A stretch of 64,000 nucleotides of DNA from Escherichia phage NHEP1, in the sequence record PQ511146.1. The stretch is one strand, 5' to 3'. Made by a program: the position numbers and the translations under genes. This document shows, one piece after another, positions 9,374-27,172 of the stretch (within the stretch, counting starts at the first letter, position 1; every line of letters starts with the position of its first letter). The notes under the pieces are model-generated. The model saw only the letters and a program-made list of their open reading frames with translations, ran no database searches and was not told the DNA's origin.

Positions 9374-10717
9374 TTACTCTAAATCTTCTTCTGAGTCAAG
9401 CTTATCTTTCACAGCTAAATTAGGGGCAAGTTTGTAATAGCGAAAGCCCCCACCGCCTTGCCAGTTTACAGATTTAGAAATACCACTTTGATCTTCACCA
9501 TCGATCACTTTTTGCAAGCGTGGAATAATATGGGTATGACAATGATCTCCTAGCTCAACCGAGATCCAACGTCTTTTCATCTTGTGAGCTACAGCAGCAG
9601 TAGTTCCAGAACCACCAAATGAATCCAATACTAAATCTCCTTCTCGCGTACACATTTCTAAAATCCGCTTCAAAAGCGCTTCAGGTTTTTTTCCATTTTT
9701 GAAACTAACGCCCCCTTCATTTGCTATTCCATTCCAACTAATGTCAGTCCAAACATCAGTTATTAGTTCAGCAGGCTGCATCTCACCGTCAATTTCCAAA
9801 AGCCTGTTGGAATAAAAGACCATTTGCCTACCATTTGCGATATAAAAGCCTTCGACATCCTCATTTGGATGTACATAAACCTTATCCCTATCTTTCTTTG
9901 ACTTCTCGATAGTTTCTTTTCTCTTTATTTTGGCACCACCGCCAATTGCAACGGATTGAAATACACGTTCTGCATTATCAATTGCAAATTGTGCTAATTC
10001 ATCATCAAATGTATCAGGCAGTTTTTTCTTGGCTTCTTTTGTATCTTTATAGCCATTGGCCTTTGCAAACGCATCGGCAATACCGCACCACGTCCAACTT
10101 TTATAATGGTCATCTGGGTTTAATAGATATTTGTTATATCCCGTATCATACTCTTTAGGTATATAGATTTTGTTAAGTGGTTTCTTGGTACGATCTTTTG
10201 CATATACAAGCAAAAAGTTTGCTGTGGAGAAAACTGTAGTTCCTGTTGCCTTAAAGCCTGAAGGGCAATTTGTAGTCATCGATATGGTATTTAACTGATT
10301 TGCACGACCAAAAATCTCGTCCATCAAGACTTTTAAATAAGCCATTTCGCAGTCATCTAAGTGAACGAATATCACTCCATCATCGCTTAGCAGATTACGA
10401 ATTATTTCTAATCTGTCCCGCATTAAGCCCAGCCAAAGGGAGTGCTCCAGGCTATCATCGTAGTGCTCAAAATCCCTTCCGGTATTGAATGGCGGGTCTA
10501 TGTAAACACACTTCACTTTGCCTGCATACTCTTGCTCTAGTGCCTTCAATGCCAGTAAGTTATCTCCAAAAATCAGTTTATTATCAAAAATATCGTTTTC
10601 GGTCACCTTTTTACTGGCGTGATAAGACTTGCTCGAATCTTCTAACAAAATGTGAGGCTCTAGCTTTTTGCGCTCGTTCTTACCTATCCAGGTAAGTTCT
10701 AATTTGGTTTTACTCAT
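9374..10717 (-). CDS. DNA methyltransferase, N6-adenine/N4-cytosine beta class
   Basis: 447 aa; motif IV IDPPF precedes motif I DSFGGSGTT (beta-class order). Confidence 0.85.
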   Translation of the reverse strand: MSKTKLELTWIGKNERKKLEPHILLEDSSKSYHASKKVTENDIFDNKLIFGDNLLALKALEQEYAGKVKCVYIDPPFNTGRDFEHYDDSLEHSLWLGLMRDRLEIIRNLLSDDGVIFVHLDDCEMAYLKVLMDEIFGRANQLNTISMTTNCPSGFKATGTTVFSTANFLLVYAKDRTKKPLNKIYIPKEYDTGYNKYLLNPDDHYKSWTWCGIADAFAKANGYKDTKEAKKKLPDTFDDELAQFAIDNAERVFQSVAIGGGAKIKRKETIEKSKKDRDKVYVHPNEDVEGFYIANGRQMVFYSNRLLEIDGEMQPAELITDVWTDISWNGIANEGGVSFKNGKKPEALLKRILEMCTREGDLVLDSFGGSGTTAAVAHKMKRRWISVELGDHCHTHIIPRLQKVIDGEDQSGISKSVNWQGGGGFRYYKLAPNLAVKDKLDSEEDLE

Positions 10718-10743
10718 CGTTTGGTGCTCTCCTTAGTTTTTGT

Positions 10744-10761
10744 GGGGAGGAGTGCCTCCCC
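10744..10761. other. perfect intergenic hairpin GGGGAGG-AGTG-CCTCCCC
   Basis: 7-bp GC-rich inverted repeat between methyltransferase start and upstream gene stop; no U-tract on the coding (minus) strand. Confidence 0.4.
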
Positions 10762-10778
10762 TTTATACTCACATCTTA

Positions 10779-11120
10779 CTACTCAAGGTCTTCAGAGTCA
10801 AGCTCAAAAAGAATCAAACTGTGCATGCCTGCAGAGAGATCAACACACCCTGCAACAATAAGGGTTTGATAGTAAGGTTCAGCACCCTCAATATCTTCGT
10901 TAAAATCCACAACAAGGTAGTCACCTTTGTTAAAGGTGTATTTGTCCGATGTAAACGCAAAACCTGCCCAGTCCCCTACTGCAGGATCTTTATCAGTCAC
11001 CTTTGTTAGCAGTAGATCTTTTTCACGAGATCTTTTAGTAAAATCGTGAATCACAACATCCTTCTCTTCAGGAGTCGGATTGCCACACACGTAGTTAACG
11101 ATATTTCTCCACAAACTCAT
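10779..11120 (-). CDS. hypothetical protein
   Basis: 113 aa ORF; stop overlaps start region of next gene. Confidence 0.55.
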   Translation of the reverse strand: MSLWRNIVNYVCGNPTPEEKDVVIHDFTKRSREKDLLLTKVTDKDPAVGDWAGFAFTSDKYTFNKGDYLVVDFNEDIEGAEPYYQTLIVAGCVDLSAGMHSLILFELDSEDLE

Positions 11121-12487
11121 ACGTCCCCCTTTTCTGCTCTAGTTTCAAAATCTTTCCTGACTTTCTCGTCTAAGCCAGGGAAAGTTGTATTATAAAACTC
11201 TACGACTCTCGGGTCAACAATAATATCCACCTCTCTTAATGGACGCAACAAGTTTATTCCTTGTATCGTCTTAACCCGACTCAAGGCAACATACGTCATT
11301 CCGGGAGAGAAAGCTCCGTTCTTTCCGAGGTCTAGGTTGTAACAATCTAACGTAAGTCCTTGACTTTTATGCGATGTTACTGCGTACCCAGATTTCAAAG
11401 GAAGTTGCTCATAAGACCCGATCACAACCCTCTCTATGAACTTCTCCATCTTCCTTTCGGCAATATTGTACCTCTGGGAAGGTTTGTACTCGTTATTCTC
11501 CCACAATCTCGGCTCAATTTCAACCTGTGTCCCGTCTTCCAGCTCAACCACCACAGACTTGGTCTTGAATTTTACCACTGTGGCGCGTGTCCCGTTGACA
11601 TAGTACGGAACTTTATGTGTCGGGTCAACATCGTTTGAGGTTATCATAACCTTCATCCCTATCTTCAGCCTCATTTCCTGCTCCACAGGCAGTGTGGAGG
11701 GGAACTTACCTTTCATTTTACCAATGTAGGTCTTCTCTGGGGCCTTGATGGCATCATAGAAACGTCTGTTCACCTCCTCTGCTTGCTTATTGGTGGCACA
11801 GATGGTCAAGGCATCTGTTGGGACACCACCATGATAGCAACGAGTGTTAAGCTCTGCTACAACCTCTTTTATGCGACGACCTTCACGAACACAGTTCAAC
11901 ATTGTGGCGAAGCGAACAGATTCCTGACGGAACTGGTCTACTAATGCTATATTGTGAAGATTAAGATCCTCCCAAGATTTTGTATAGCAACACAGGTCTG
12001 TGTGGTAGAAGTTGAAGTAGGCTTCTTTCTCCATAGAAGAGACAACTGGGGGTGCTTGGTAGAAATCTCCAAACAATAGCACCTGAATGCCTCCGAAAGG
12101 TTTGTCATTTTTCCGAAGAAAGCGGAGTTTTCTATCCATCTCTATGAACTTGTCAGCACGGATCATAGAGATTTCATCGATAATTAGGATGGTAAATGCC
12201 TTGCTTTTCAGAGGCTTTGCTGTTTTTGCCCTTATTGCTGTCCAGTCTGACTCCATGCTCACACCTGCGGCAAGATCGAAAGTTCGGTGCGCTGTTGCTC
12301 CATTAACGTTTAAAGCGGCTACCCCTGTCGGGGCAACCGTTATGCAAGAGTCTCCATACATGGACTGGATCATGTTGATAAGATATGTCTTCCCGGTTCC
12401 ACCGGGTCCACTTACGAAGACATTCTCACCACTCATGATTGCAACAAGGGCAGCATCTGTGCCTACATCGTACTGCCCTTTTTCCAT
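11117..12487 (-). CDS. SF1 DNA helicase, Dda/RecD/Pif1-like
   Basis: 456 aa; Walker A GPGGTGKT, Walker B IIDEISM, C-terminal SHKSQGLT and YVALSRV motifs. Confidence 0.85.
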   Translation of the reverse strand: MEKGQYDVGTDAALVAIMSGENVFVSGPGGTGKTYLINMIQSMYGDSCITVAPTGVAALNVNGATAHRTFDLAAGVSMESDWTAIRAKTAKPLKSKAFTILIIDEISMIRADKFIEMDRKLRFLRKNDKPFGGIQVLLFGDFYQAPPVVSSMEKEAYFNFYHTDLCCYTKSWEDLNLHNIALVDQFRQESVRFATMLNCVREGRRIKEVVAELNTRCYHGGVPTDALTICATNKQAEEVNRRFYDAIKAPEKTYIGKMKGKFPSTLPVEQEMRLKIGMKVMITSNDVDPTHKVPYYVNGTRATVVKFKTKSVVVELEDGTQVEIEPRLWENNEYKPSQRYNIAERKMEKFIERVVIGSYEQLPLKSGYAVTSHKSQGLTLDCYNLDLGKNGAFSPGMTYVALSRVKTIQGINLLRPLREVDIIVDPRVVEFYNTTFPGLDEKVRKDFETRAEKGDV

Positions 12488-13692
12488 TACGCCTCCTCGT
12501 AGATAATGTCGATAGTATTACCGTCGCGGTCAACCACGTACTCAATTGGGTCGCCATCTTTGCGTGATTCTGGAGCTACTACGATTTCGTAGCGGCATGC
12601 ACGGCACTTGGCGCTGTTGTGTTGGTAAGGTACACTAACTACATCAGCAGGGTCAACCATGACCGTCATCACAGTTCCGTAGCTCTTTGCATACTCTTTG
12701 CTGGCACAGTGCAGGCCATAAGAGCATGCAGCTTCCGGATCATCCTCTACAAAGTTACGGGGCATGGATACAAAAGCTCCCTGGTATTGTGGGACTTTAC
12801 CACTGTGCCAATCCACCCACTTGTCGCCGTTAAACTGAACCCCTTTGTAGCAAATGATTCGACCATCTTCTGCAATCTGAATGTCGTTTGCCTGCATAAA
12901 ATCGTAGAGCATGTTTACAGATTTTGCAGAAGGATTGCGTAGCAGGCGAACGAGGAATTTCACATAGCGGTCATCCAGTGTTCCGTCTGCATAATCTTTC
13001 TCAATTTTCTTTGCAATGGTGGATCGCATCTCTACACCGTAGTAGTAGAGCTTACCATCTTTCATGATCAGGTTGTCTGCAAGTGTGGTGAACTCATTCT
13101 TGCGTTCCAGCCAGACAAGGATTTCACCAATTGCCTCGTCATATTCCTGAACAGAGATATGGTCGAAGACTTTCTGGTAAACTTCCTCACTTTCACTGCG
13201 GCGAATTTCAAAAATACCTTCGTTGCAGGTGATCTGGAGGAGTTCCCCGCAAATAACCACCAAAGGCTCGATGCTTCGGGTCTGTTGCTGAGACACACTG
13301 CTCACCACCTCCAGCACCGGGTCTTTTACTTCTACTAAAGGTTCTTCTGACTTGATTGCTACCCCAGTGAACCCTACACCGTGAACAACACACAGTGGAT
13401 ATACCACACCCCAACGTTTAACGGAACCTTCTCCTGAATCTAAGATCATGGCGTACTTACCGTTATCTTCCAGCCCATATCGAAATAAACGGGCCTCTTC
13501 ACGGGTTTCAAAATCCTCACGGGTGTAGCAGACGCTGTCACGGTCAGGATCGAACAACTCTGGGGCACCTACTGCCAGTGTCCAGGTTGTGTTACCTTTC
13601 TCAATAGCGCATGTGAAACCCTTCTTCTCAAGCTCTGCACGGCGGTCACGTGCTTCTTTACGAGTTTTGAAATGTTCGTAGATGAAAATCAT
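12487..13692 (-). CDS. rIIB-like protein (tentative)
   Basis: Directly downstream of GHKL-ATPase gene; C-terminal region (MLYDFMQANDIQIAEDG...DVVSVPYQHNSAKCRACRYEIV) resembles my recollection of T4 rIIB; start moved to ATG after AAGGAGA SD. Confidence 0.45.
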   Translation of the reverse strand: MIFIYEHFKTRKEARDRRAELEKKGFTCAIEKGNTTWTLAVGAPELFDPDRDSVCYTREDFETREEARLFRYGLEDNGKYAMILDSGEGSVKRWGVVYPLCVVHGVGFTGVAIKSEEPLVEVKDPVLEVVSSVSQQQTRSIEPLVVICGELLQITCNEGIFEIRRSESEEVYQKVFDHISVQEYDEAIGEILVWLERKNEFTTLADNLIMKDGKLYYYGVEMRSTIAKKIEKDYADGTLDDRYVKFLVRLLRNPSAKSVNMLYDFMQANDIQIAEDGRIICYKGVQFNGDKWVDWHSGKVPQYQGAFVSMPRNFVEDDPEAACSYGLHCASKEYAKSYGTVMTVMVDPADVVSVPYQHNSAKCRACRYEIVVAPESRKDGDPIEYVVDRDGNTIDIIYEEA

Positions 13693-13702
13693 CTTGGTCT
13701 CC

Positions 13703-15685
13703 TTATTTGATGTTATTCTTTGTATCAATCAGTTCACGGTATTCAATCATAGCAGGAGTGTCCCAATATTTCAAGCCTACATGCTTCAAAAGTGGATATT
13801 TCTTTTCCAATCTTGCAATATAGGCCTTCCCGCACTTAACCCGGTTGGCGATTAAGATTTTGGCACGATGATTTAGCTCACCGTACTTCCACGTGGTGCT
13901 ACCTTCCCACTTGTGGAAATGTGGCCGATAACTTCCAAAATCCTGCATGGGGATAATTTTACCTAACTGTCTGTACAGGCTGTCATATGAAGTTTCATTT
14001 GCTGCGCGAGTTAGTAAGAATTTCCAAGCATCCTCTTTCAACAAATGTTCCACATTCTTCTCTGTAACATATTGGCAATCAGGATCAGTCCAAAGCAGAC
14101 GAGATTCCGACACCAGGTACAGATCTTCCCCTTCAGGAATCTGGAGTGCCGCACGCACACGGTCATAATCTTGCTGGTAGATGTTGCTCATCTGCCCTAG
14201 CCAACAACTTCCGCGTTGGATATCCCCCTCATACGGTATGCAGTGCTTAATCTTCCTGAACTCTGCCTTAGTAATACGCTCACGCCGGAAGTAACCATCC
14301 TTCTCAAGTTTTTTAACCCAATAGCCTGGTTCGTAACGGGTTTTGGTTTCACCTTTCTTCGTAGGTCGGCGTGGAAGCTCCGATAACAATTTGACCGTAT
14401 CTGCAAAAAACGGATGGTGTGCCGCCTCTTTAAACTCTTTCACCAGATCCGTGTTACGGCAATAGAAAACGTTGCGTCCGGTAATCTCGCTTAAGTAGTT
14501 ACACTTATTCCGGTTATATTTGCCGTCTCCGTCGTTAAATACTAAATAAACTCCCCGTAAGAATTCTACCTTTCCGTAGCAGGCGTAACCTATGCGGCCT
14601 TTATTTAAGCCGCCAGCGAAGATCTCGCAGTCCCCCAAATTTCCTAGCCCTGTTTCTTCCCAGCGGTCATACATAAAATTCTTACCGAAGATGTGCCCGA
14701 ACACTCCACTGTTCTTCATCATCTCGCGTGCTTCTGAGGATGTTTTTGCTGTCTCCAGTTCTGCAACAACTTCTGCTCCACGAAGGCGAATGCCTTCTTT
14801 GACAAAAGCTTCCAAACGCTCTTGGAATCCACCATCGTCGTGACCTTCTATGGTCCATTCACGCCCTGGGTTAATATTGCAATCTCCGATAGGGATCTCT
14901 ACACAAATTGCAGGATAATCTATTAGTGTCTCCAGGAACTTAGAACGGTAAGGTTGGTGACCCATTACCACACGACTCTCGTCAGAGCTGGTATAACCCT
15001 TCAGGATGGTCATCTTCCAACCATCTTTTTCATAATAATACTGCGCCTCTACTTTGTCTCCCTCCAGCATCTTGCTCGTCATCGGGTCGGTGACAGTGAA
15101 CGGAAATTTTGCATAGCGCAGGCATGATGCAATAGCGGTGCGATATTTCAGAACATGCTCTTTCTTAACATGAAACTGAACTTTTACCCCGTTGTGCTCT
15201 TCAGTCTTCCGCTCACGGATCTTGGTGACATTTGGGATACCCTGGTCCAAGAACAATAGGTATGTGCTTTCCACACCGTTGTGCACACTGATTACATCGA
15301 AAGTGTCCACCATACTGAACGGGGCCTTTGAACCAACACCTTTATTGCCTACCAGAGCGTTGCTGTTGCGCTTGGTTGACTCTCCGAGGTTCATGAAGGT
15401 GTTGCGGACCATCTCTTCTGACATGCCTAATCCAACGTCCTGCACAAAGAAGTATGGTTCAAGGTCTGTAGGAGAGTGAATGATGATCGGAACATCACCC
15501 CGTCCAGACTCAACATGGGAGTCCACAGCATTGAAGATCGGTTCACGGCAGCTTGCCAGCACCTTATCTTCATAAATCCCTTTGATGATTAGCCCAAAAG
15601 TCTCTTTGTTCAGAGAAATTGATCCCCTGGTTACCTCCATATTCCCAGTTAGCACCGCTTTAGTTTCACTGCTGTTTACAATCAT
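13703..15685 (-). CDS. GHKL-family ATPase, rIIA-like (tentative)
   Basis: 660 aa; Bergerat-fold motifs FNAVDS (N box), DVGLGM (G1), GNKGVGSKA (G2) in N-terminal third; AAGGAG SD. Confidence 0.55.
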   Translation of the reverse strand: MIVNSSETKAVLTGNMEVTRGSISLNKETFGLIIKGIYEDKVLASCREPIFNAVDSHVESGRGDVPIIIHSPTDLEPYFFVQDVGLGMSEEMVRNTFMNLGESTKRNSNALVGNKGVGSKAPFSMVDTFDVISVHNGVESTYLLFLDQGIPNVTKIRERKTEEHNGVKVQFHVKKEHVLKYRTAIASCLRYAKFPFTVTDPMTSKMLEGDKVEAQYYYEKDGWKMTILKGYTSSDESRVVMGHQPYRSKFLETLIDYPAICVEIPIGDCNINPGREWTIEGHDDGGFQERLEAFVKEGIRLRGAEVVAELETAKTSSEAREMMKNSGVFGHIFGKNFMYDRWEETGLGNLGDCEIFAGGLNKGRIGYACYGKVEFLRGVYLVFNDGDGKYNRNKCNYLSEITGRNVFYCRNTDLVKEFKEAAHHPFFADTVKLLSELPRRPTKKGETKTRYEPGYWVKKLEKDGYFRRERITKAEFRKIKHCIPYEGDIQRGSCWLGQMSNIYQQDYDRVRAALQIPEGEDLYLVSESRLLWTDPDCQYVTEKNVEHLLKEDAWKFLLTRAANETSYDSLYRQLGKIIPMQDFGSYRPHFHKWEGSTTWKYGELNHRAKILIANRVKCGKAYIARLEKKYPLLKHVGLKYWDTPAMIEYRELIDTKNNIK

Positions 15686-16182
15686 TTATTGCGCTCCTTG
15701 TAGTAGATATGACTCCCGAATTGAGCTGTCCTCTGCATCTTTTTTGCCCATTTCGGTCGTACTTTTGTTGTATGGTAGTGTGTTGCTCCGCCTGTTATAT
15801 CCATAGCCATGTATGCAACATGGTTGTTATTATAGACCTTTAGAAGCATCTTTGCAAGACTTTTAGCGTGATCCCATGAATCTTTTTCTGTCACCTTAAA
15901 AGTTTTGCCGTGGTTTGTCCACGAAAACTGGTTAGGTTGGTAGACAATCTTTCTTATAGTGTCTGGGTATTTGGGGTGAGATTTCCTGTTTAGTGTGGCA
16001 AACCCAGATGCCAGCATACCCATCGTGCCATCCCCTCTAGCCTCCCTGTAGATATTGCATGCCAGAATGTTTTCCTTAGTATCCGACGGCTTGCAGGTGT
16101 GATATACTTTTTGTTTTGGTGCTGCAACAACAGGCAGCGATAAAAATGCGCTCAAAATAATAGCAAAGATCTTAGTTTTCAC
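15682..16182 (-). CDS. cell wall hydrolase, SleB/Hydrolase_2-like, with N-terminal signal peptide
   Basis: 166 aa; signal peptide MKTKIFAIILSAFLSLPVVAAP; NIYREARGDG, NQFS and GATHYH motifs; GTG start after GGAG SD; stop overlaps rIIA-like start. Confidence 0.65.
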   Translation of the reverse strand: MKTKIFAIILSAFLSLPVVAAPKQKVYHTCKPSDTKENILACNIYREARGDGTMGMLASGFATLNRKSHPKYPDTIRKIVYQPNQFSWTNHGKTFKVTEKDSWDHAKSLAKMLLKVYNNNHVAYMAMDITGGATHYHTTKVRPKWAKKMQRTAQFGSHIYYKERNK

Positions 16183-16187
16183 AATAG

Positions 16188-16218
16188 CTCCAAATAGAAA
16201 ATCCCCGCCGAAGCGGGG
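16188..16218 (-). terminator. rho-independent terminator (UUCG tetraloop)
   Basis: Minus transcript CCCCGC-UUCG-GCGGGG followed by AUUUUCUAUUU; downstream of 16232..16612. Confidence 0.65.
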
Positions 16219-16231
16219 TGTGTCTTAGAAA

Positions 16232-16612
16232 TTAATCGTAGTGTGCCAAAATCTCTCCATCGTTGCAAGTCCCCTCTACGAAGTTGTGAAGATTCATGCA
16301 TTCATCTTGATAGAAGAATTTACCGCTTTTCAGCCGTAGACCAAACAACTCCGCATCTCCACGATGGCAAGCCTCTACAAGTTCATAGATTTCATACGGT
16401 AACTCTCCATCGTCATGGAAGAACCCCGCTTTATCGTTGACATAGATGAAGAAATAGTCACTGCTGTCGCAAGCGTCCAGTATTTTAAACCAGATTTCAT
16501 CCACATCTTTTTCTCGGATATCGATCACACAAGTGGAGCTGCATTCGTACTCCTTCTCCGGCTCCTCGGTCAATACCACCAAGTAGTTTCCCCGCTTACC
16601 TACTTTAGCCAT
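16232..16612 (-). CDS. hypothetical protein
   Basis: 126 aa ORF. Confidence 0.55.
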   Translation of the reverse strand: MAKVGKRGNYLVVLTEEPEKEYECSSTCVIDIREKDVDEIWFKILDACDSSDYFFIYVNDKAGFFHDDGELPYEIYELVEACHRGDAELFGLRLKSGKFFYQDECMNLHNFVEGTCNDGEILAHYD

Positions 16613-16621
16613 ACAACCTCC

Positions 16622-17806
16622 TCAAGCTTTAGCTAAAATGGCGCTAAACTCTTCACCAAACTCTTTTACAATCTTCATCAGGTTTGGGTATGCTTTGATC
16701 AGCTGAGCGACGATCTTGTCCCTGCCTTTACCAATAAGTAAGGCATTTCCTAAGGCGTTAGGTTTCATCATCGCCATAAAGACTGAGAATACAAAGTCTC
16801 GGTTCTCATCCTTGAAATTTTCCCAAAGGAAATCAAGGAAGTTTGCCACACAGCTGACAAGATCTTCGTCGGAGATACTTGCATTTTCCATCATATTACG
16901 AATAGCGATACAACCTTCTGACCCCAGAATCCACAAGATGTCTGGCTGCTTAGGACCTACATATTCTTTGCAGCCTCCTGCCATAATCCGACCGATTTCT
17001 GGCAAGTTTCGTTTCTTGGTGTGGTAGGTCCAAATTTCTACCGCTGCAGTGTGACCAATTGCACCTTGTAGAAGGACACGGGCCATAGCGTCAGAAATAA
17101 TACCGCTGTCAAAATCGTGCAGGATGTCAGATGCAGCAACCCAAGATCGCGGTGTGGCAAAAGATGGACAATTAATCTCAGCCATGGCCTCATAATTATC
17201 AATGGCTGATGGGACTCTTTTCAGATATCCAATTACAGAGGAGTGCACCCCATTAAGGAATGCATAGTCCTCAATAAACACCTCTGCACTGCTTGTAACT
17301 TCTACAATGATAAAGCGGTTAGCTAGAGGAGCTTCGAGCGCCGAAAGAACAGCACCGTCTGTAGCACGGTTACCTGCAGCTACAAAAACAGAGCCCTTAG
17401 GAAATGCATAGGTGCCGCACTTGTGGTCGAGCATAATTTGCATTGCAACCTTCTGCAGGTAGTTATCTGCATGAGTAAGCTCGTCTAGAAAGATAATTCC
17501 GCTCCAGTCCGGATCTGCAGGCCAAAATTCTGGAATTGCAAACACTGTACGTGTAGTCCCATCCGACTCTACAGGGATAGGTAGCCCAGATAAGTCAGCA
17601 GGGTCTTTATCTGACAGTCGCACGTCAACAAGGTTGTCATCTCGCTCACCGAACATATTATCAGCGATCTGCTTCATCACCTGACTTTTACCCACACCCA
17701 TTGGTCCCAAAATTAGGACAGATCGGCTATGACGTTGGGCAAACTGAATAATGGCTGGCAACTCACGGACAGTGATTTGACCACTTTCGAATACGTTTCT
17801 TGACAT
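16622..17806 (-). CDS. AAA+ ATPase, MoxR/CobS-like (AAA_5-type)
   Basis: 394 aa; Walker A ILGPMGVGKSQV, Walker B IIFLDELTHA. Confidence 0.75.
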   Translation of the reverse strand: MSRNVFESGQITVRELPAIIQFAQRHSRSVLILGPMGVGKSQVMKQIADNMFGERDDNLVDVRLSDKDPADLSGLPIPVESDGTTRTVFAIPEFWPADPDWSGIIFLDELTHADNYLQKVAMQIMLDHKCGTYAFPKGSVFVAAGNRATDGAVLSALEAPLANRFIIVEVTSSAEVFIEDYAFLNGVHSSVIGYLKRVPSAIDNYEAMAEINCPSFATPRSWVAASDILHDFDSGIISDAMARVLLQGAIGHTAAVEIWTYHTKKRNLPEIGRIMAGGCKEYVGPKQPDILWILGSEGCIAIRNMMENASISDEDLVSCVANFLDFLWENFKDENRDFVFSVFMAMMKPNALGNALLIGKGRDKIVAQLIKAYPNLMKIVKEFGEEFSAILAKA

Positions 17807-18108
17807 TAGTAAAAGTCCTCTACTTGTGTGTAAGTGTTTTCAAAGTTTTCCAAAACAGATGTCACATCGGATCTGTCAATATCGTACACAACTTCCCAGT
17901 TGTATGCAACCCTTTCTGCTGTTGCTTCTTCGGGACTTAACCGCCTACTGGGGTGAAAGAATGTTGGAGTGCACTTTCTTAGCTGTTTCCCGATTTTCCC
18001 ATAACAATACCTGTGGATAATTTTGTCAAAATTTAACTCTTTTTCTGCACAAAGTTCATGTTTCTGGTATAGCATGTTTATTACTCTTTTAAGTGGCCTC
18101 CTTGCCAC
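17806..18108 (-). CDS. hypothetical protein
   Basis: 100 aa ORF in compact minus-strand operon. Confidence 0.5.
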   Translation of the reverse strand: MARRPLKRVINMLYQKHELCAEKELNFDKIIHRYCYGKIGKQLRKCTPTFFHPSRRLSPEEATAERVAYNWEVVYDIDRSDVTSVLENFENTYTQVEDFY

Positions 18109-18114
18109 TACCTG

Positions 18115-18495
18115 CTAGAATGCAGTTCGAATCCAAACAAGGTTTTTATCTGCCCAATCATAAAGGCAAGTCATTGCACTGTTGAATTGCTCGCATGGTG
18201 GATAATCCTCTTCCATTCGGCGCATACCAGAACCTTGAGGGAAAAGACTCATTGCTGCAAACCACGAATCGTAGTCATCCACAGTGTCGAAGTAGTATAC
18301 AACATCCTCCAATTCAGGGTCGAATTTTAAATTATCAGGATCCAGCAGCTCAGGAAACTTGGCACGTAACTTGCCAGCTACGATACTTGCCAGCTCGCTA
18401 ACATGCTTGTTGTCCCAATCTACCAGTTTCCCGTCTTCATCGATGCGTCCTAGCCACTGTTCATGGAGATCAACTGTTGTCTTCCACTGTGCCAT
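18115..18495 (-). CDS. hypothetical protein
   Basis: 126 aa ORF. Confidence 0.5.
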   Translation of the reverse strand: MAQWKTTVDLHEQWLGRIDEDGKLVDWDNKHVSELASIVAGKLRAKFPELLDPDNLKFDPELEDVVYYFDTVDDYDSWFAAMSLFPQGSGMRRMEEDYPPCEQFNSAMTCLYDWADKNLVWIRTAF

Positions 18496-18497
18496 TA

Positions 18498-18755
18498 TCA
18501 GTCTACCTCTTCTTCCCGTTGCAGCTCAAGATACCCATAGGTCTGGATATCTTCAAGGGTGTGAAACTCCCCGTCAGCAGCCAAGGCGCGAACAACTTGG
18601 CGCAAAACTTTATGAGGGACTTCATCCAGCCCTAGATTCAGTGCAGGAAACACCTTATCTAAGTCAACAAAATAAACGAACTGTAGTTCACCAGCTTCAA
18701 AAGGTGTATCTTCAATAAACATCTTCTCGGCATTGGTCAAGATCTGCACTTTCAT
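18498..18755 (-). CDS. hypothetical protein
   Basis: 85 aa ORF. Confidence 0.5.
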   Translation of the reverse strand: MKVQILTNAEKMFIEDTPFEAGELQFVYFVDLDKVFPALNLGLDEVPHKVLRQVVRALAADGEFHTLEDIQTYGYLELQREEEVD

Positions 18756-19111
18756 TATTCTACCCCCTCTTCTTTTTCTTCAGCATTAGTTTCAGTGCTA
18801 CCCCACTCTGGAGTTTCCACCTCGATAGTAAACTCACGCACTACACGGTAATTGCCCATGAAGCGCTCCACTTCTTCAAGGCTTATGGAGAGGCCATTGG
18901 CAACCAAGTCTGCAGCACCCTTCTCTACCAGGTAGTCCAGATTGGCTTCCAAGGCTTCAGGCTCAAACCCTGTCAATGCAATCATATAACCTTCCCCTTC
19001 ATCAGGGAGGGCAATACAGCCCAACTGATTTTCTTTAAAAAAGCAGTGACCATCATTATTGATTGGGTGCTCATTGCAGTAAATAGCTGCACGATAAGTA
19101 ACTTTAGACAT
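18755..19111 (-). CDS. hypothetical protein
   Basis: 118 aa ORF. Confidence 0.5.
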   Translation of the reverse strand: MSKVTYRAAIYCNEHPINNDGHCFFKENQLGCIALPDEGEGYMIALTGFEPEALEANLDYLVEKGAADLVANGLSISLEEVERFMGNYRVVREFTIEVETPEWGSTETNAEEKEEGVE

Positions 19112-19123
19112 TGATAGGCCTCC

Positions 19124-19402
19124 TTAGGCAACTGTCATTTTACATTCTTTGAATTTTAGCACAAGACGGTGATTGTGTCTAGTGTCTAAAAAGATTTTTT
19201 CAACCATCAGGCACACGGTGTAACCGTCCATCTTATTGACAACAAAATCTCCAGGGTAAGGGAGAATGTCACCTGGACTGGGGAAACATAGCCCACTCAA
19301 GAAGGCATCGTCGGTGGTGGATTTAATGGATTTCCACACACTGTCTGCCTGAATATTTTCACCCACATAATATACACTACCACATGCCTTCATCATAGTC
19401 AA
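19124..19402 (-). CDS. hypothetical protein
   Basis: 92 aa ORF. Confidence 0.5.
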   Translation of the reverse strand: MTMMKACGSVYYVGENIQADSVWKSIKSTTDDAFLSGLCFPSPGDILPYPGDFVVNKMDGYTVCLMVEKIFLDTRHNHRLVLKFKECKMTVA

Positions 19403-20298
19403 ATCTCCGCGTAAATTAAACTGGAATCAGTATACTTCTTTAGTGGGTAAATATCCTGTCCATAGATGCCGTCATTAAACACCTCATCTACCCAAAGGCT
19501 ACACTTATATCCCATCATCTCTAAAACACCCATCTCTTCTTCGGTAAACTTATCACCGCTCTTGCAAGATGTCAATACCTCATTCTGTACTCTTGCCACC
19601 TCGAAGCGGTTATTGGCAATATCGCTATTAGCGATCAAATACTCACCCAAAGGGTGTGCGGCATTAAAGATGCACAGTGGACGGTTGACGTAATAGTCTC
19701 CAGGTGTATAAAAATTATTGAGGTCTTTCACTAGAACATTCTTATCAGTCACTTCATTCATAACATCATGCATATCGCACATCTTTATATGTTTGAGGAT
19801 TCCATCCCCCATCACAAAATAAAAACTTGCTGAAACACTTTCGGCATAGATCTTACTAGATCCGTTGTAGTTGTATTTTACTCGGATGCTAACGGGGGTT
19901 TTTCCTGTCGCGTTAGCCATCATCCAAAGAAATGGCAGCTCATACTTCTCCTCTGAGGAAACAAAAGGTGAAGTTGCCAGAGATCGGAAACCTCCAGAGA
20001 AGTTGAAAGTTACAGAACCGCTCCGGCGGTATGATACTGCGTATTCCACTTTTATATCAACATATCCGTTGGAGTAAGTATGCCCTCCATTATCAAGGTA
20101 TGTCCACTTATCGGACCCAGATACCAACCTCCGCTCAATTACCTTCATCACTACAGGGATTAGCGGATTAGTACAAACCGATTTTGAAGTAGCTTTATCA
20201 TCCAAAGCCTCGTAAATTGCAGAAAGGATATCACCTGCTGAGAGATTGGTTGTGATATCTTGTTTCCACCTGGTGCTAAAACTGTTAAGATTTGCCAT
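19399..20298 (-). CDS. hypothetical protein
   Basis: 299 aa; TAGGAGCAC SD before ATG; first gene after divergent promoter. Confidence 0.6.
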   Translation of the reverse strand: MANLNSFSTRWKQDITTNLSAGDILSAIYEALDDKATSKSVCTNPLIPVVMKVIERRLVSGSDKWTYLDNGGHTYSNGYVDIKVEYAVSYRRSGSVTFNFSGGFRSLATSPFVSSEEKYELPFLWMMANATGKTPVSIRVKYNYNGSSKIYAESVSASFYFVMGDGILKHIKMCDMHDVMNEVTDKNVLVKDLNNFYTPGDYYVNRPLCIFNAAHPLGEYLIANSDIANNRFEVARVQNEVLTSCKSGDKFTEEEMGVLEMMGYKCSLWVDEVFNDGIYGQDIYPLKKYTDSSLIYAEI

Positions 20299-20338
20299 GA
20301 GTAAGTGCTCCTATGTTAGTTTTCTTTTGAATGGGTGC

Positions 20339-20367
20339 ACTATATCGTGGATTTAGAGTAAAGTCAA
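20339..20367 (-). promoter_or_regulatory. sigma70-like promoter (TTGACT-N17-TATAGT) for leftward operon
   Basis: Read on minus strand: -35 TTGACT, 17-nt spacer, -10 TATAGT. Confidence 0.6.
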
Positions 20368-20380
20368 CACGTTTTTCAGG

Positions 20381-20409
20381 TTGACATCTTCTCAGGCACT
20401 TGGTAAGAT
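20381..20409 (+). promoter_or_regulatory. sigma70-like promoter (TTGACA-N17-TAAGAT) for rightward accessory operon
   Basis: -35 TTGACA at 20381-20386, 17-nt spacer, -10 TAAGAT; 14 bp from the divergent minus-strand promoter. Confidence 0.55.
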
Positions 20410-20440
20410 TTCTCCACCCACAGAGAACAAGAGACAACTC

Positions 20441-21430
20441 ATGAATCTTGAAAAATATTATACACCAGAAGAGTTAGAGCGCTTGCTCAAAAAATACAGA
20501 CGCAAACAGAATAACGCACGGAAACGGGATATAGAGTTCAACCTGTCATGGGAAGAATATCTCCTATTTGGTAAAAAACTTTTAGGAGAGGGAGTATGCG
20601 ACTATACCCTTATACCTTTCGACATGCACACAGATGAAAACGGACTGGGAAATCCTTTCTACCCATCTCTGGAGCGGATAGATGATGAAGGTCCTTATGC
20701 GGTTGACAATTGTTGTGTGGTGGGATTGAGATGCAACTCCCTAAAGGACTGCCTGGTAGATAAAAAGACCGCAGTCTTGATTAAAGACAAAACTGATCGA
20801 AAAATTGTCCAGCAGATGATGCTCCACCTGAGCGAAGAGCGTATGGAGAAATTGAAAGGTGATTACACTTTTGAAGATTTCATCTTGCAATATGGAACGG
20901 AAGAGGATAAACTAGCACTCTTTGACGAAGAATGGGAGGAAGATATGTCACCGATGCAGGATTTTAAAAACTTCATGGCTAATCGTGGAGCCAACAAGCA
21001 CATTTCTGACATTGTAAACGAGCCTGTAGTAGAGGAGATTGGAGAGATGACGCAACAGGCTTACGAAGAGGAAAAAGAGCCTCAAGTGGTCGAAGAAGAG
21101 CTTACAGAAGAGGTTCCTGCACTGCCTGACGATGTTGAGATTGCCAAAGCTTACACTTTCTATTGCCAGACGTTCTACGATGCAGGTATGAAAGTTGATC
21201 TGTCATTCAGCCAGTTTAAGAGCACATACATTCGAAAATGTTGTGCTTTAACTGGTGAACGTCTCGGTGCCGGACTTAAACCCCTATTAGTTACCGACTG
21301 GAACAAAGGTTTCACCAAAGGTAACTTCATGGTAGTATCTCCAATCATGGAGAAGGCTATGACAGACCTTATGAAGACCACTCGCATGACAATGACCGAG
21401 TTGGCTGGTATTTTCAAGCACGTTAAATAA
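20441..21430 (+). CDS. hypothetical acidic protein with two related Cys-containing segments
   Basis: Track ORF starts at TTG inside the promoter -35; first ATG is 20441; acidic linker EEEKEPQVVEEELTEEVP. Confidence 0.55.
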   Translation: MNLEKYYTPEELERLLKKYRRKQNNARKRDIEFNLSWEEYLLFGKKLLGEGVCDYTLIPFDMHTDENGLGNPFYPSLERIDDEGPYAVDNCCVVGLRCNSLKDCLVDKKTAVLIKDKTDRKIVQQMMLHLSEERMEKLKGDYTFEDFILQYGTEEDKLALFDEEWEEDMSPMQDFKNFMANRGANKHISDIVNEPVVEEIGEMTQQAYEEEKEPQVVEEELTEEVPALPDDVEIAKAYTFYCQTFYDAGMKVDLSFSQFKSTYIRKCCALTGERLGAGLKPLLVTDWNKGFTKGNFMVVSPIMEKAMTDLMKTTRMTMTELAGIFKHVK

Positions 21431-21435
21431 TGACA

Positions 21436-21450
21436 GGGGCCATTGGCCCC
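21436..21450 (+). other. intergenic hairpin GGGGCC-ATT-GGCCCC (possible weak terminator/attenuator)
   Basis: Perfect 6-bp GC stem between stop at 21430 and next start; weak U-tract. Confidence 0.4.
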
Positions 21451-21463
21451 TTCTGGAGTTTTA

Positions 21464-22924
21464 ATGGATAGCAGAAGTTCAGAAATCATTACCGCACAAA
21501 AAGATGATGCCTTGCGAATGCTGCAGGCCGCTCGCATGTACCTTCTTGAAAAGCTGCCGTTTTATGGCACACTGTTGTCAGGGTTGCAGTTCGTAGAAAA
21601 CCACACATGGTGCTCCACTATGGCAACAGACCATAAACGCATCTACTACAGCCCTGAGTTCATTATGGGGTTGGCAGATGAGCGTAAAACCATTCTTAAA
21701 GCATCTCTGACTGACAAGCAGTTTGAGATGGCTGAAGTTTTCTATTCCCCAAAATCTGTGAAAGAGGTGGCCTTTCTTCTGTCACATGAGGTGGGGCATA
21801 TTATCTGTGATCATCTGGTCCGTGGTAAAAGCTTTGAGCCGGAACTGTTCAATATTGCTTGTGATCACGTTATCAACACAGGTCTTGTGGTTGACTTTAG
21901 CAAGCCTCCTTGTGTTTTCTTCCCGAAGGGGAAAAGCACTGAGTTCGTAAAAGGTAAGCCTTTTGGCTTCTTAGCTAATTGCTACTGCGACATGAAGTTT
22001 CATGGATGGATTGCGGAGAACGTCTATGCAGTTCTTGATAAACAAAGAGATCAGAATGGCGGTAAAAGTAAGAACGGTAAAGGTGAGAACTCCCAAGGAG
22101 ATAAACGACAAACCGATGATCACATGAGCGGGAACGGTGGCACTAGTGATGATCTTGGAAAGGCTATGGGGTATGATCAGCCGCAACCAGTAATCAGTCA
22201 ATCGGATAAAGATCAGGCCATGCAGGACTCTGGTGACATGTTGGAAGCAGCAATGCAAGCTTCAGGAGGTCGTTGCCCCGAGGCGGTGCGCGAGTTTGTC
22301 AAAAACAGAGGCAAGCCTGTAATCAATTATATAGATATTATTAAGCAACGTATGTTATCTAAAAGAAAGGCTGAGTTAACCTACAGAAAACCTGGTCGCC
22401 GATCTGGGTCTTTGACCACCACAATGCGAAAAGTTGGAGCTATAAACAAGAATCAACACGTTATTGTTCCTGGTCGTAATCCGGAAAACACTATAGATAT
22501 TGTAGTGGCTTTAGACGTTTCTGGGTCGATCTCACAAAGAACTTTAAAGAAAATGTTCAATGAGATCACCGGGTTGTGCAATTTGTATAAAGAGTTTAAG
22601 GTTACGATGTTCTGTTGGTCAACCGAGGTTGGAGAGGTTAAAGTATACACTCGCGGTAACATCGATGAGATGATCAACTATGAGGTCCACTCAACATGGG
22701 GCACAACAGCCGCCTGCGTGTTCGAGTATCTTGATGCTAACATACCGAATGCAAAAGATGTCATCGTCCTTACCGACCTCTACTTTGAGCATAACTTTGA
22801 ACAAAAGGCTGTTGACAACAAGTGGAAAAAGTACGATACTTTATGGGTTCTCACCGAAGGGTATAATAAAAATTATATCCCGAGCTTTGGGAAAACTGTG
22901 GAATTAATCGAGTACGCTAAGTAA
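21464..22924 (+). CDS. metallopeptidase-like (HExxH) + von Willebrand factor A domain protein
   Basis: 486 aa; LLSHEVGHIICDH motif; C-terminal MIDAS-like VALDVSGSIS; track TTG start replaced by ATG after GGAG SD. Confidence 0.7.
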   Translation: MDSRSSEIITAQKDDALRMLQAARMYLLEKLPFYGTLLSGLQFVENHTWCSTMATDHKRIYYSPEFIMGLADERKTILKASLTDKQFEMAEVFYSPKSVKEVAFLLSHEVGHIICDHLVRGKSFEPELFNIACDHVINTGLVVDFSKPPCVFFPKGKSTEFVKGKPFGFLANCYCDMKFHGWIAENVYAVLDKQRDQNGGKSKNGKGENSQGDKRQTDDHMSGNGGTSDDLGKAMGYDQPQPVISQSDKDQAMQDSGDMLEAAMQASGGRCPEAVREFVKNRGKPVINYIDIIKQRMLSKRKAELTYRKPGRRSGSLTTTMRKVGAINKNQHVIVPGRNPENTIDIVVALDVSGSISQRTLKKMFNEITGLCNLYKEFKVTMFCWSTEVGEVKVYTRGNIDEMINYEVHSTWGTTAACVFEYLDANIPNAKDVIVLTDLYFEHNFEQKAVDNKWKKYDTLWVLTEGYNKNYIPSFGKTVELIEYAK

Positions 22925-27145: not shown

Positions 27146-27172
27146 GAAAGGGGCCATTTGGCCCCTTTTTTA
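27146..27172. terminator. bidirectional rho-independent terminator between convergent transcription units
   Basis: AAAAAGAAAGGGGCC-AUUU-GGCCCCUUUUUU: 6-bp GC stem flanked by A-run and U-run. Confidence 0.75.

Follow-up and report, generated by a model that had tools for sequence, protein, structure and literature searches.

A MoxR-type ATPase and a metallopeptidase-like protein with a von Willebrand factor A (vWA) domain are encoded on opposite strands in Escherichia phage NHEP1, and this locus raises the question of whether two genes separated in this way still encode partners. The DNA analyzed is a stretch of 64,000 nucleotides (nt) of sequence record PQ511146.1, called the window here. An initial annotation had proposed an ATPase gene at 16622..17806 on the minus strand and a vWA gene at 21464..22924 on the plus strand, and both open reading frames (ORFs), of 394 and 486 amino acids (aa), were indeed present there. 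The distance between them is 3,657 bp (17806 to 21464). From the comparisons described below, it is rather probable that the two genes encode subunits of one machine, of the type of gp24/gp25 of phage N4, and that their operon was split by an inversion.

Judged by its sequence, the window is from an rV5/FV3-like Vequintavirus, since the 7.5-kb surroundings of the gene pair share 93–97% nucleotide identity with more than 100 rV5/FV3-like Escherichia phages. In the GenBank records of these relatives, the ATPase gene is labeled ‘MoxR ATPase’ and the vWA gene ‘putative metallopeptidase domain’ or ‘VWA-like domain-containing protein’. Scanning of the 64 kb found a single member of each family.

The ATPase and the zincin–vWA protein

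The ATPase, a homologue of N4 gp24, contains a Walker A motif (GPMGVGKS, aa 34–41, 17684–17707), a Walker B motif (IIFLDE, aa 104–109, 17480–17497), the sensor-1 sequence AAGN with N146 (17369–17380), and the sequences LANRF (R164, 17312–17326) and ATPRS (R220, 17144–17158), all on the minus strand. In an alignment of 32 homologues, with identity as low as 29%, no variation was found at G37, G39, K40, S41, D108, E109, N146, R164 and R220. The protein matched PHROG 1297 with an E value of 4e-110, and its family profile matched Midasin (E 3e-10). AAA_3/AAA_5 were matched by 13–15 of the 32 aligned proteins, homologues of about 30–35% identity, and a Sulfurovum homologue exceeded the thresholds of both models. 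Mg_chelatase was matched by just one member, weakly (E 0.0074). The AlphaFold model had a predicted local distance difference test (pLDDT) score of 83. The top ranks of its Foldseek search were taken by NorQ, in NorQ–NorD VWA complexes, and by CbbQ2 (E 2e-8 to 4e-8), with target-normalized template modeling (TM) scores of 0.62–0.67, and clamp loaders, ClpC and McrB ranked below them.

On this fold and profile evidence, the modeled ATPase is assigned to the MoxR class; the initial annotation had named placement in an unrelated family as the finding that would count against it, and the matches led to no such family. Its label ‘MoxR/CobS-like’ holds in the first half, by fold and profiles, but not in the second, for which no model matched. 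Among the profiles that had been suggested as a check, DUF2201 was matched by the vWA protein, AAA_5 matched the ATPase only below threshold, and CobS and CobT_C gave nothing. Assignment to CobS/CobT cobaltochelatase or to a BchI/BchD motor was discarded, since no match to CobS, CobT or CobT_C was obtained in Pfam and NCBIfam at E values up to 0.1. A known defense-system label was also dropped, as nothing meaningful was found in NCBIfam or PADLOC; in the latter, the vWA protein was unmatched and the ATPase gave P-loop-level matches only.

The second protein, homologous to N4 gp25, starts at an ATG at 21464 backed by GGAG 6 nt upstream. As had been predicted, it combines an HExxH sequence with a vWA domain. 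Its N-terminal region was recognized as DUF2201_N (PF13203; E 1e-28, 101 bits against a cut-off of 23.2) and its C-terminal region as DUF2201, above threshold (E 3.5e-11). The N-terminal domain matched zincin peptidase families only, namely DUF2201_N and, weakly, M48 and SprT-like, and matches of the vWA domain included the NorD and BchD VWA domains. The sequence HEVGH is at aa 108–112 (21785–21799, plus strand), and HExxH was found in nine of nine lineages checked. A complete DxSxS…T…D metal ion-dependent adhesion site (MIDAS) is present on the vWA (Rossmann-like) fold, formed by DVSGS (D351-x-S353-x-S355, 22514–22528), T414 (within 22697–22708) and D438 (within 22769–22780), all on the plus strand. 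The five MIDAS residues, whose loss had been considered in advance as an argument against the annotation, were unchanged in 28 homologues together with H108 and H112, and E109 was nearly invariant.

Between the zincin and vWA domains, the linker contains a conserved basic motif, T-Y-R-(K/R)-P-x-R-R-S (aa 308–316, 22385–22411, plus strand), and the conserved basic sequence GRRSGS is at 22394–22411 (plus strand). The linker was modeled with low confidence, and R312 is nearly invariant; the motif could be a pore-engaging or a processing site.

The vWA protein belongs to PHROG 1314, a family labeled ‘HNH endonuclease’, and Pfam detected no HNH domain in it. This label has been carried into RefSeq for N4 gp25, RaK2 gp481 and PVP-SE1 gp216, and the Ettore version reads ‘homing endonuclease’. 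On a DUF2201_N–DUF2201 protein, it is apparently an erroneous annotation that was propagated.

In their separated state, both genes evolve under strong purifying selection. Across rV5-like phages, the ratio of nonsynonymous to synonymous substitution rates (dN/dS) was 0.017–0.035 for the two genes and 0.017–0.027 for the ATPase gene.

Gene linkage and gene order in other genomes

Loci were gathered with the ATPase alignment, and the vWA gene was then sought in their flanks; a scan with the single vWA protein returned close relatives only. In IMG/VR, a DUF2201 gene was found directly downstream of the ATPase gene, on the same strand and with a gap of at most 517 bp, in 68 of the 71 loci with enough flanking sequence to be evaluated. 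Two of the other three were divergent (one rV5-type and one Seunavirus-type), and the last (L048) had a different downstream gene, an ORF of 359 aa that has a CxxxC-type motif (CNFNCS) and occupies the place of the vWA gene before the contig end. Because one environmental clade makes up most of the IMG/VR loci, isolates were added. The pair is adjacent in N4 (gp24/gp25), RaK2 and SSBI34, on the same strand, and also in a 578-kb phage and one bacterial contig, and it is co-directional with a separation of 1.0–2.9 kb in phiFa, Pag-Yong1 and Ettore. Homologues were detectable in the jumbo phages RaK2, where they are annotated as gp24-like and gp25-like, G17/PBECO4-like and PA5oct-like. HExxH, DxSGS and Walker B were kept in every lineage inspected, as was Walker A, with the variant SSPGMGKS in N4 gp24. 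In bacteria, the DUF2201 gene was directly downstream in 45 of 72 evaluable loci and nearby in three more.

This linkage across lineages indicates that the pair is a genuine and ancient two-gene unit, the N4 gp24/gp25 pair, and supports the ATPase and the vWA protein as partners. The view of the initial annotation that they represent a widespread and uncharacterized ATPase–vWA partnership is thereby borne out by gene neighborhoods in phages and bacteria, N4, RaK2 and SSBI34 among them.

The relation to N4 was found with both families, whose profiles detected gp24 (E 6e-57) and gp25 (E 3e-47). The N4 proteins resemble the window pair in their HExxH and DxSGS motifs, and the two phages have a common module order, ATPase–(vWA)–rIIA–rIIB–helicase (N4, 9938–22276 of the locus analyzed; window, 11117–17806, minus strand), with protein identities of 21–31% (ATPase, about 27%; vWA protein, 21%). 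However, gp24 and gp25 are adjacent and co-directional, whereas the window genes are on opposite strands, 3.6 kb apart. In addition, N4 is a podophage that transcribes its middle genes with its own RNA polymerase (RNAPII), while the window is from a myophage and its promoters look like host sigma70 sites. The N4-like phages (Schitoviridae) have 14 core genes, which include both gp24 and gp25; these two are middle transcripts and have no assigned function (Chan et al. 2014, PMC4193335).

The divergent layout can be traced by comparing gene orders. In the window, PVP-SE1, 4MG and one further locus (L016), the helicase, rIIB, rIIA and SleB genes are followed by the ATPase gene, all on the minus strand, then by the bidirectional promoter region and, on the plus strand, by an Srd-like gene and the vWA gene. 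The window, PVP-SE1 and 4MG are thus divergent and do not have the adjacent, co-directional ATPase→vWA order. SSBI34, a member of the Vequintavirinae whose closest annotated relatives are Cronobacter phages CR3/CR9, has the Srd-like gene on the minus strand, then the bidirectional region, and the ATPase and vWA genes in sequence on the plus strand. In a CR3-like metagenomic locus (L017), helicase and SleB genes on the minus strand precede the ATPase and vWA genes on the plus strand. The bidirectional promoter region and the Srd-like gene move together, inverted or not.

One inversion interconverts the window/PVP-SE1 and SSBI34/CR3-like orders. The difference is explained if the inverted block comprises the Srd-like gene, the ATPase gene and what lies between them, and if its right breakpoint is in the ATPase–vWA spacer. 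The adjacent state is probably ancestral, judging from the N4-like, jumbo and environmental phages and bacteria as outgroups. The split state is old, since it is common to rV5-like and PVP-SE1-like phages, although the ATPases of the latter are only 50–54% identical to that of the window; their vWA proteins are 43–45% identical.

Some observations on individual loci accompany these comparisons. The SSBI34 ATPase homologue (L181, 10650–11870) is annotated in GenBank as ‘ribosomal protein uS19’, an obvious annotation error. Bacterial MoxR loci with no recognizable DUF2201 gene include L097, L098, L105, L110 and L127–L130, of Sulfurovum-type genomes. In Sulfurovum sp. CS9, an ORF of 462 aa, unmatched in Pfam, lies in front of the ATPase gene and overlaps it; this ORF may encode a divergent or alternative partner. 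On the 578-kb phage contig (L005, 1592–8591), the pair is placed among HSP20, ClpS and ClpP genes, in what looks like a proteostasis neighborhood; its 465-aa ATPase has no Pfam match and was recognized by the family hidden Markov model (HMM) with E 9e-76. On a bacterial contig (L007, JAZRYF010000023.1, 3496–14662), the pair is inside a co-directional cluster that encodes an AAA+ ATPase, a 272-aa protein, a 1076-aa SNF2/ResIII helicase, the MoxR homologue, the DUF2201 protein, and M50-like, LRR and metallophosphoesterase proteins, adjoined by genes for a kinase, a PP2C phosphatase, a VWA protein and a JAB protein. This cluster may be a defense or conflict island.

Divergent promoters and transcription units

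The proposal of a divergent promoter between genes about 3.6 kb apart agrees with what was found in the 142-bp intergenic region 20299–20440, which is occupied by back-to-back sigma70-like promoters. In a consensus scan, the minus-strand promoter (TTGACT-17-TATAGT, 20367..20339) and the plus-strand promoter (TTGACA-17-TAAGAT, with TG in front, 20381..20409) gave 10 of 12 matches each. All four hexamers were unchanged in five relatives, down to 85% identity, and the spacer of the minus-strand promoter was partly diverged in the most distant of them. In PVP-SE1, a promoter is annotated at the equivalent place. Since both arms start at this region, one control region still governs the two genes after the inversion.

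The minus-strand arm is a packed unit in which six genes, of 299, 92, 118, 85, 126 and 100 aa in the ORF list, run from the promoter to the ATPase gene (17806..20298). They belong to PHROG families, none with a supported function. The ATPase gene comes seventh in the unit, and its start codon overlaps with the stop codon of the ORF before it (TAATG). No strong terminator-like site was seen in 17806..20298. The unit closes with a 126-aa gene (16232..16612, minus strand) and a terminator-like hairpin, CCCCGC-TTCG-GCGGGG with a T-rich tail (16218..16203, minus strand). This last gene was considered as a remnant of a vWA gene and rejected, as it gave no HMM signal.

The plus-strand arm begins with the Srd-like gene (329 aa, 20441–21430), which matches PHROG 3118, 4592 and 1400, labeled ‘HNH endonuclease’, ‘decoy of host sigma70’ and ‘Srd anti-sigma factor’ (N-terminal ~100 aa), and is an ‘anti-sigma factor’ in GenBank. 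The vWA gene is second in this unit, after a GC-rich hairpin just upstream of it (AGGGGCC-ATT-GGCCCCT, 21435–21451, plus strand). The short plus-strand block (about 20.4–27.1 kb) meets the next minus-strand block at a strong terminator-like hairpin with a 9-bp stem, AAAGGGGCC…GGCCCCTTT (27147–27168), and GC-skew switches at 20 kb and 26–28 kb agree with its limits.

No Vequintavirus transcriptome was found in the literature, nor were timing or knock-out data for the rV5 MoxR or the N4-like vWFA gene. From the sigma70-like promoter type, the neighboring genes and the middle transcription in N4, both units would be early, and host sigma70-type promoters probably still drive the two genes together, ahead of the late genes.

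A side observation concerns database records. Sixteen records named ‘Campylobacter phage’ (MG0656xx) match the rV5-type region, with Campylobacter jejuni as host in 15 and only Campylobacter in one; the six listed were 93% identical across the whole 7.5 kb. This suggests that they are mislabeled or contaminant database genomes.

Proposed mechanism and competing explanations

In the mechanism proposed here, the ATPase would assemble into a MoxR-type AAA+ hexamer, and the second protein would be its dedicated adaptor, docking on the ATPase ring through the C-terminal vWA domain. The MIDAS site of the adaptor would capture an acidic residue of the target protein, the N-terminal zincin with its HExxH would cleave or process this target, and ATP hydrolysis would remodel adaptor and target. 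Since the adaptor carries a zincin with an intact HExxH, the machine would likely act on a specific client by ATP-dependent, MIDAS-targeted proteolysis or processing. A single inversion would have split the ancestral ATPase→vWA operon: the right breakpoint would lie in the spacer between the two genes and the bidirectional promoter region inside the inverted block, so that the genes came to stand on opposite arms of one control region. The physical complex, the proteolysis, the expression timing and the target are what we infer from the comparative analysis.

Several characterized or predicted systems resemble this scheme in part. In NorQ–NorD, the VWA domain has a finger that reaches into the pore of the MoxR hexamer, a mode that was proposed in 2023 to hold generally among MoxR/VWA couples (PMC9976466); the hexamer is plugged by one VWA partner, whose linker, and through it the client, is remodeled as ATP is hydrolyzed (PMC9976466; structures in PMC13036017). 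However, the partners in NorQ–NorD, CbbQ–CbbO and RavA–ViaA have no peptidase domain, unlike the vWA protein of the window, and these systems act on defined enzymes, by inserting metals or releasing inhibitors; sequence identity is 15–20%. A further likeness is found in group 2.2 jumbo phages, for which a MoxR AAA+ ATPase paired with a vWA protein having an N-terminal metallopeptidase was described, with a predicted role in virion assembly (Iyer et al. 2021, Viruses 13:63, PMC7824862). The window differs from these in belonging to a 135–140-kb Vequintavirus and in having the pair split and in an early/middle-type region. The MoxR–vWA tail-assembly chaperone system of Acidianus two-tailed virus (Scheele et al. 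2011), as it is reported in PMC7824862 and PMC7159879, is also a virus-encoded MoxR ATPase acting with a vWA protein; by that description, it is set apart by its archaeal virus, its vWA protein without a peptidase domain and its part in extracellular tail development.

In various lineages, the neighbors of the pair are rIIA/rIIB, helicase, thymidylate kinase, thymidylate synthase, dCTP deaminase, exonuclease and RNase H genes. This context points to the replication or host-takeover stage rather than to virion assembly, and a function before the late phase is argued from such neighbors, the sigma70-like promoters and the middle-phase expression in N4. It is tentatively proposed, as a possible and still doubtful extension, that the pair is a trans-acting, AAA+-driven, MIDAS-targeted metalloprotease that performs an essential pre-late step, for example by processing or removing a specific replication or host-takeover protein of host or phage, and that this step is common to Schitoviridae and Vequintavirinae as well as to several jumbo and many uncultured phages.

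A number of observations weigh against an ATPase–adaptor machine of this kind. For the ATPase itself, all Pfam AAA matches were under the gathering score, with AAA_5 at 16.9 against 22 bits, bpMoxR at 15.5 bits against a cut-off of 27, and AAA_3 unmatched. The vWA domain is minimal (about 140 aa), and its secondary structure gave no evident finger insertion like that of NorD. No solved structure of DUF2201_N was detectable by sequence, and the titles and abstracts of the literature on DUF2201 contained no functional paper and no demonstration of peptidase activity. No experiment on the ATPase–vWA pair was found in the literature for any phage. As for the linkage, the IMG/VR loci come mostly from one environmental clade and their counts are not independent events, and 24 of the 72 bacterial loci, mostly Sulfurovum-type, had no recognizable DUF2201 gene in the flanks. 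On one uncultured phage contig (IMGVR_UViG_3300045988_163358), for which megablast gave no isolate relative, a vWA homologue of 46% identity had no ATPase gene within ±10 kb. Finally, the RaK2 pair has a series of tail and virion-structural genes directly upstream of it. Genome-wide CRISPRi-ART screens reportedly covered T4, T5, SUSP1 and PTXU04, and neither an rV5-like phage nor N4.

This RaK2 position, which immediately follows genes for tail tube, head-closure and virion structural proteins, argues for an unlikely alternative in which the pair is a virion-assembly chaperone and maturation protease. The jumbo-phage proposal and the Acidianus two-tailed virus precedent, the latter as far as described in PMC7824862 and PMC7159879, favor it as well, and the core-gene status in N4-like phages would fit an indispensable morphogenetic role. 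However, the window neighbors are rIIA/rIIB, helicase and small early-type genes with sigma70-like promoters in front, and the N4 pair consists of middle transcripts beside dCTP deaminase, rIIA/B, helicase and DNA polymerase genes. The environmental phage clade places the pair between 5′-3′ exonuclease and thymidylate synthase genes, and in phiFa it adjoins RNase H and replication genes. The table of N4-like core genes gives no structural role to gp24 or gp25, with virion proteomes not searched directly. Some of the same context can be read differently, as a counter-defense or conflict module in which a protease–adaptor destroys a host immune or stress protein or mediates superinfection exclusion, resembling the MoxR–vWA ternary conflict systems reportedly described by Kaur et al. 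in 2020. The host-type promoters, the vicinity of rIIA/rIIB, which counter Rex exclusion, the defense-island-like company of the bacterial L007 pair (SNF2-type helicase, AAA+ ATPase, M50-like, kinase, PP2C and JAB proteins) and the HSP20, ClpS and ClpP genes around the pair of the 578-kb phage agree with this. It is nevertheless improbable: neither protein was meaningfully matched by a PADLOC model, the bpMoxR score is below threshold, and a VMAP or beta-propeller protein as third component was not seen, in a survey that included no systematic search for one. Anti-defense genes are also usually variable, while the pair is in the 14-gene N4-like core and is conserved across several phage families.

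A chaperone that inserts a metal or cofactor into a phage or host metalloenzyme, for example in nucleotide metabolism, is less probable again. It would work like NorQ–NorD, CbbQ–CbbO or CobS–CobT, with HExxH serving metal handling instead of proteolysis. The nearest solved structures are those of NorQ and CbbQ, the vWA-domain matches include NorD and BchD, and nucleotide-metabolism neighbors (thymidylate synthase, dCTP deaminase, thymidylate kinase) are frequent. On the other hand, there was no match to the CobS, CobT, NorD or CbbO families, and no single metalloenzyme was consistently neighboring across lineages by inspection. Since the N-terminal domain matches only zincin peptidase families, the peptidase domain makes a pure metal-insertion role less likely. 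It is hardly conceivable that the genes have been functionally independent since the inversion in rV5-like phages, their co-occurrence being historical. They are on different transcripts 3.6 kb apart, and some bacterial ATPase homologues have no DUF2201 neighbor, but both genes keep all catalytic residues with dN/dS at or below 0.035 across rV5-like phages, and the split persists into the diverged PVP-SE1-like phages. In addition, the 64-kb window offers no alternative partner, and one conserved bidirectional promoter region is common to both arms.

A partnership of ATPase and zincin–vWA adaptor is of a type already described, by Iyer et al. (2021) in jumbo phages, by Chan et al. (2014) among N4 core genes and in the GenBank annotation of rV5-like phages. 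The present analysis makes the homology to N4 gp24/gp25 explicit, accounts for the divergent layout by a single inversion and gives signs of a lasting partnership, with both genes intact, constrained and probably co-regulated after the inversion. The pair is among the few genes common to very different virulent groups, comprising N4-like, rV5-like, several jumbo and many environmental phages. The replication/host-takeover context and the link to N4 narrow the hypotheses on its role, and N4 or rV5-like E. coli phages would be convenient systems to address it. If the proposed role is true, the rV5-type split would be a case in which a partnership survives the loss of operon linkage while one bidirectional control region holds both genes.

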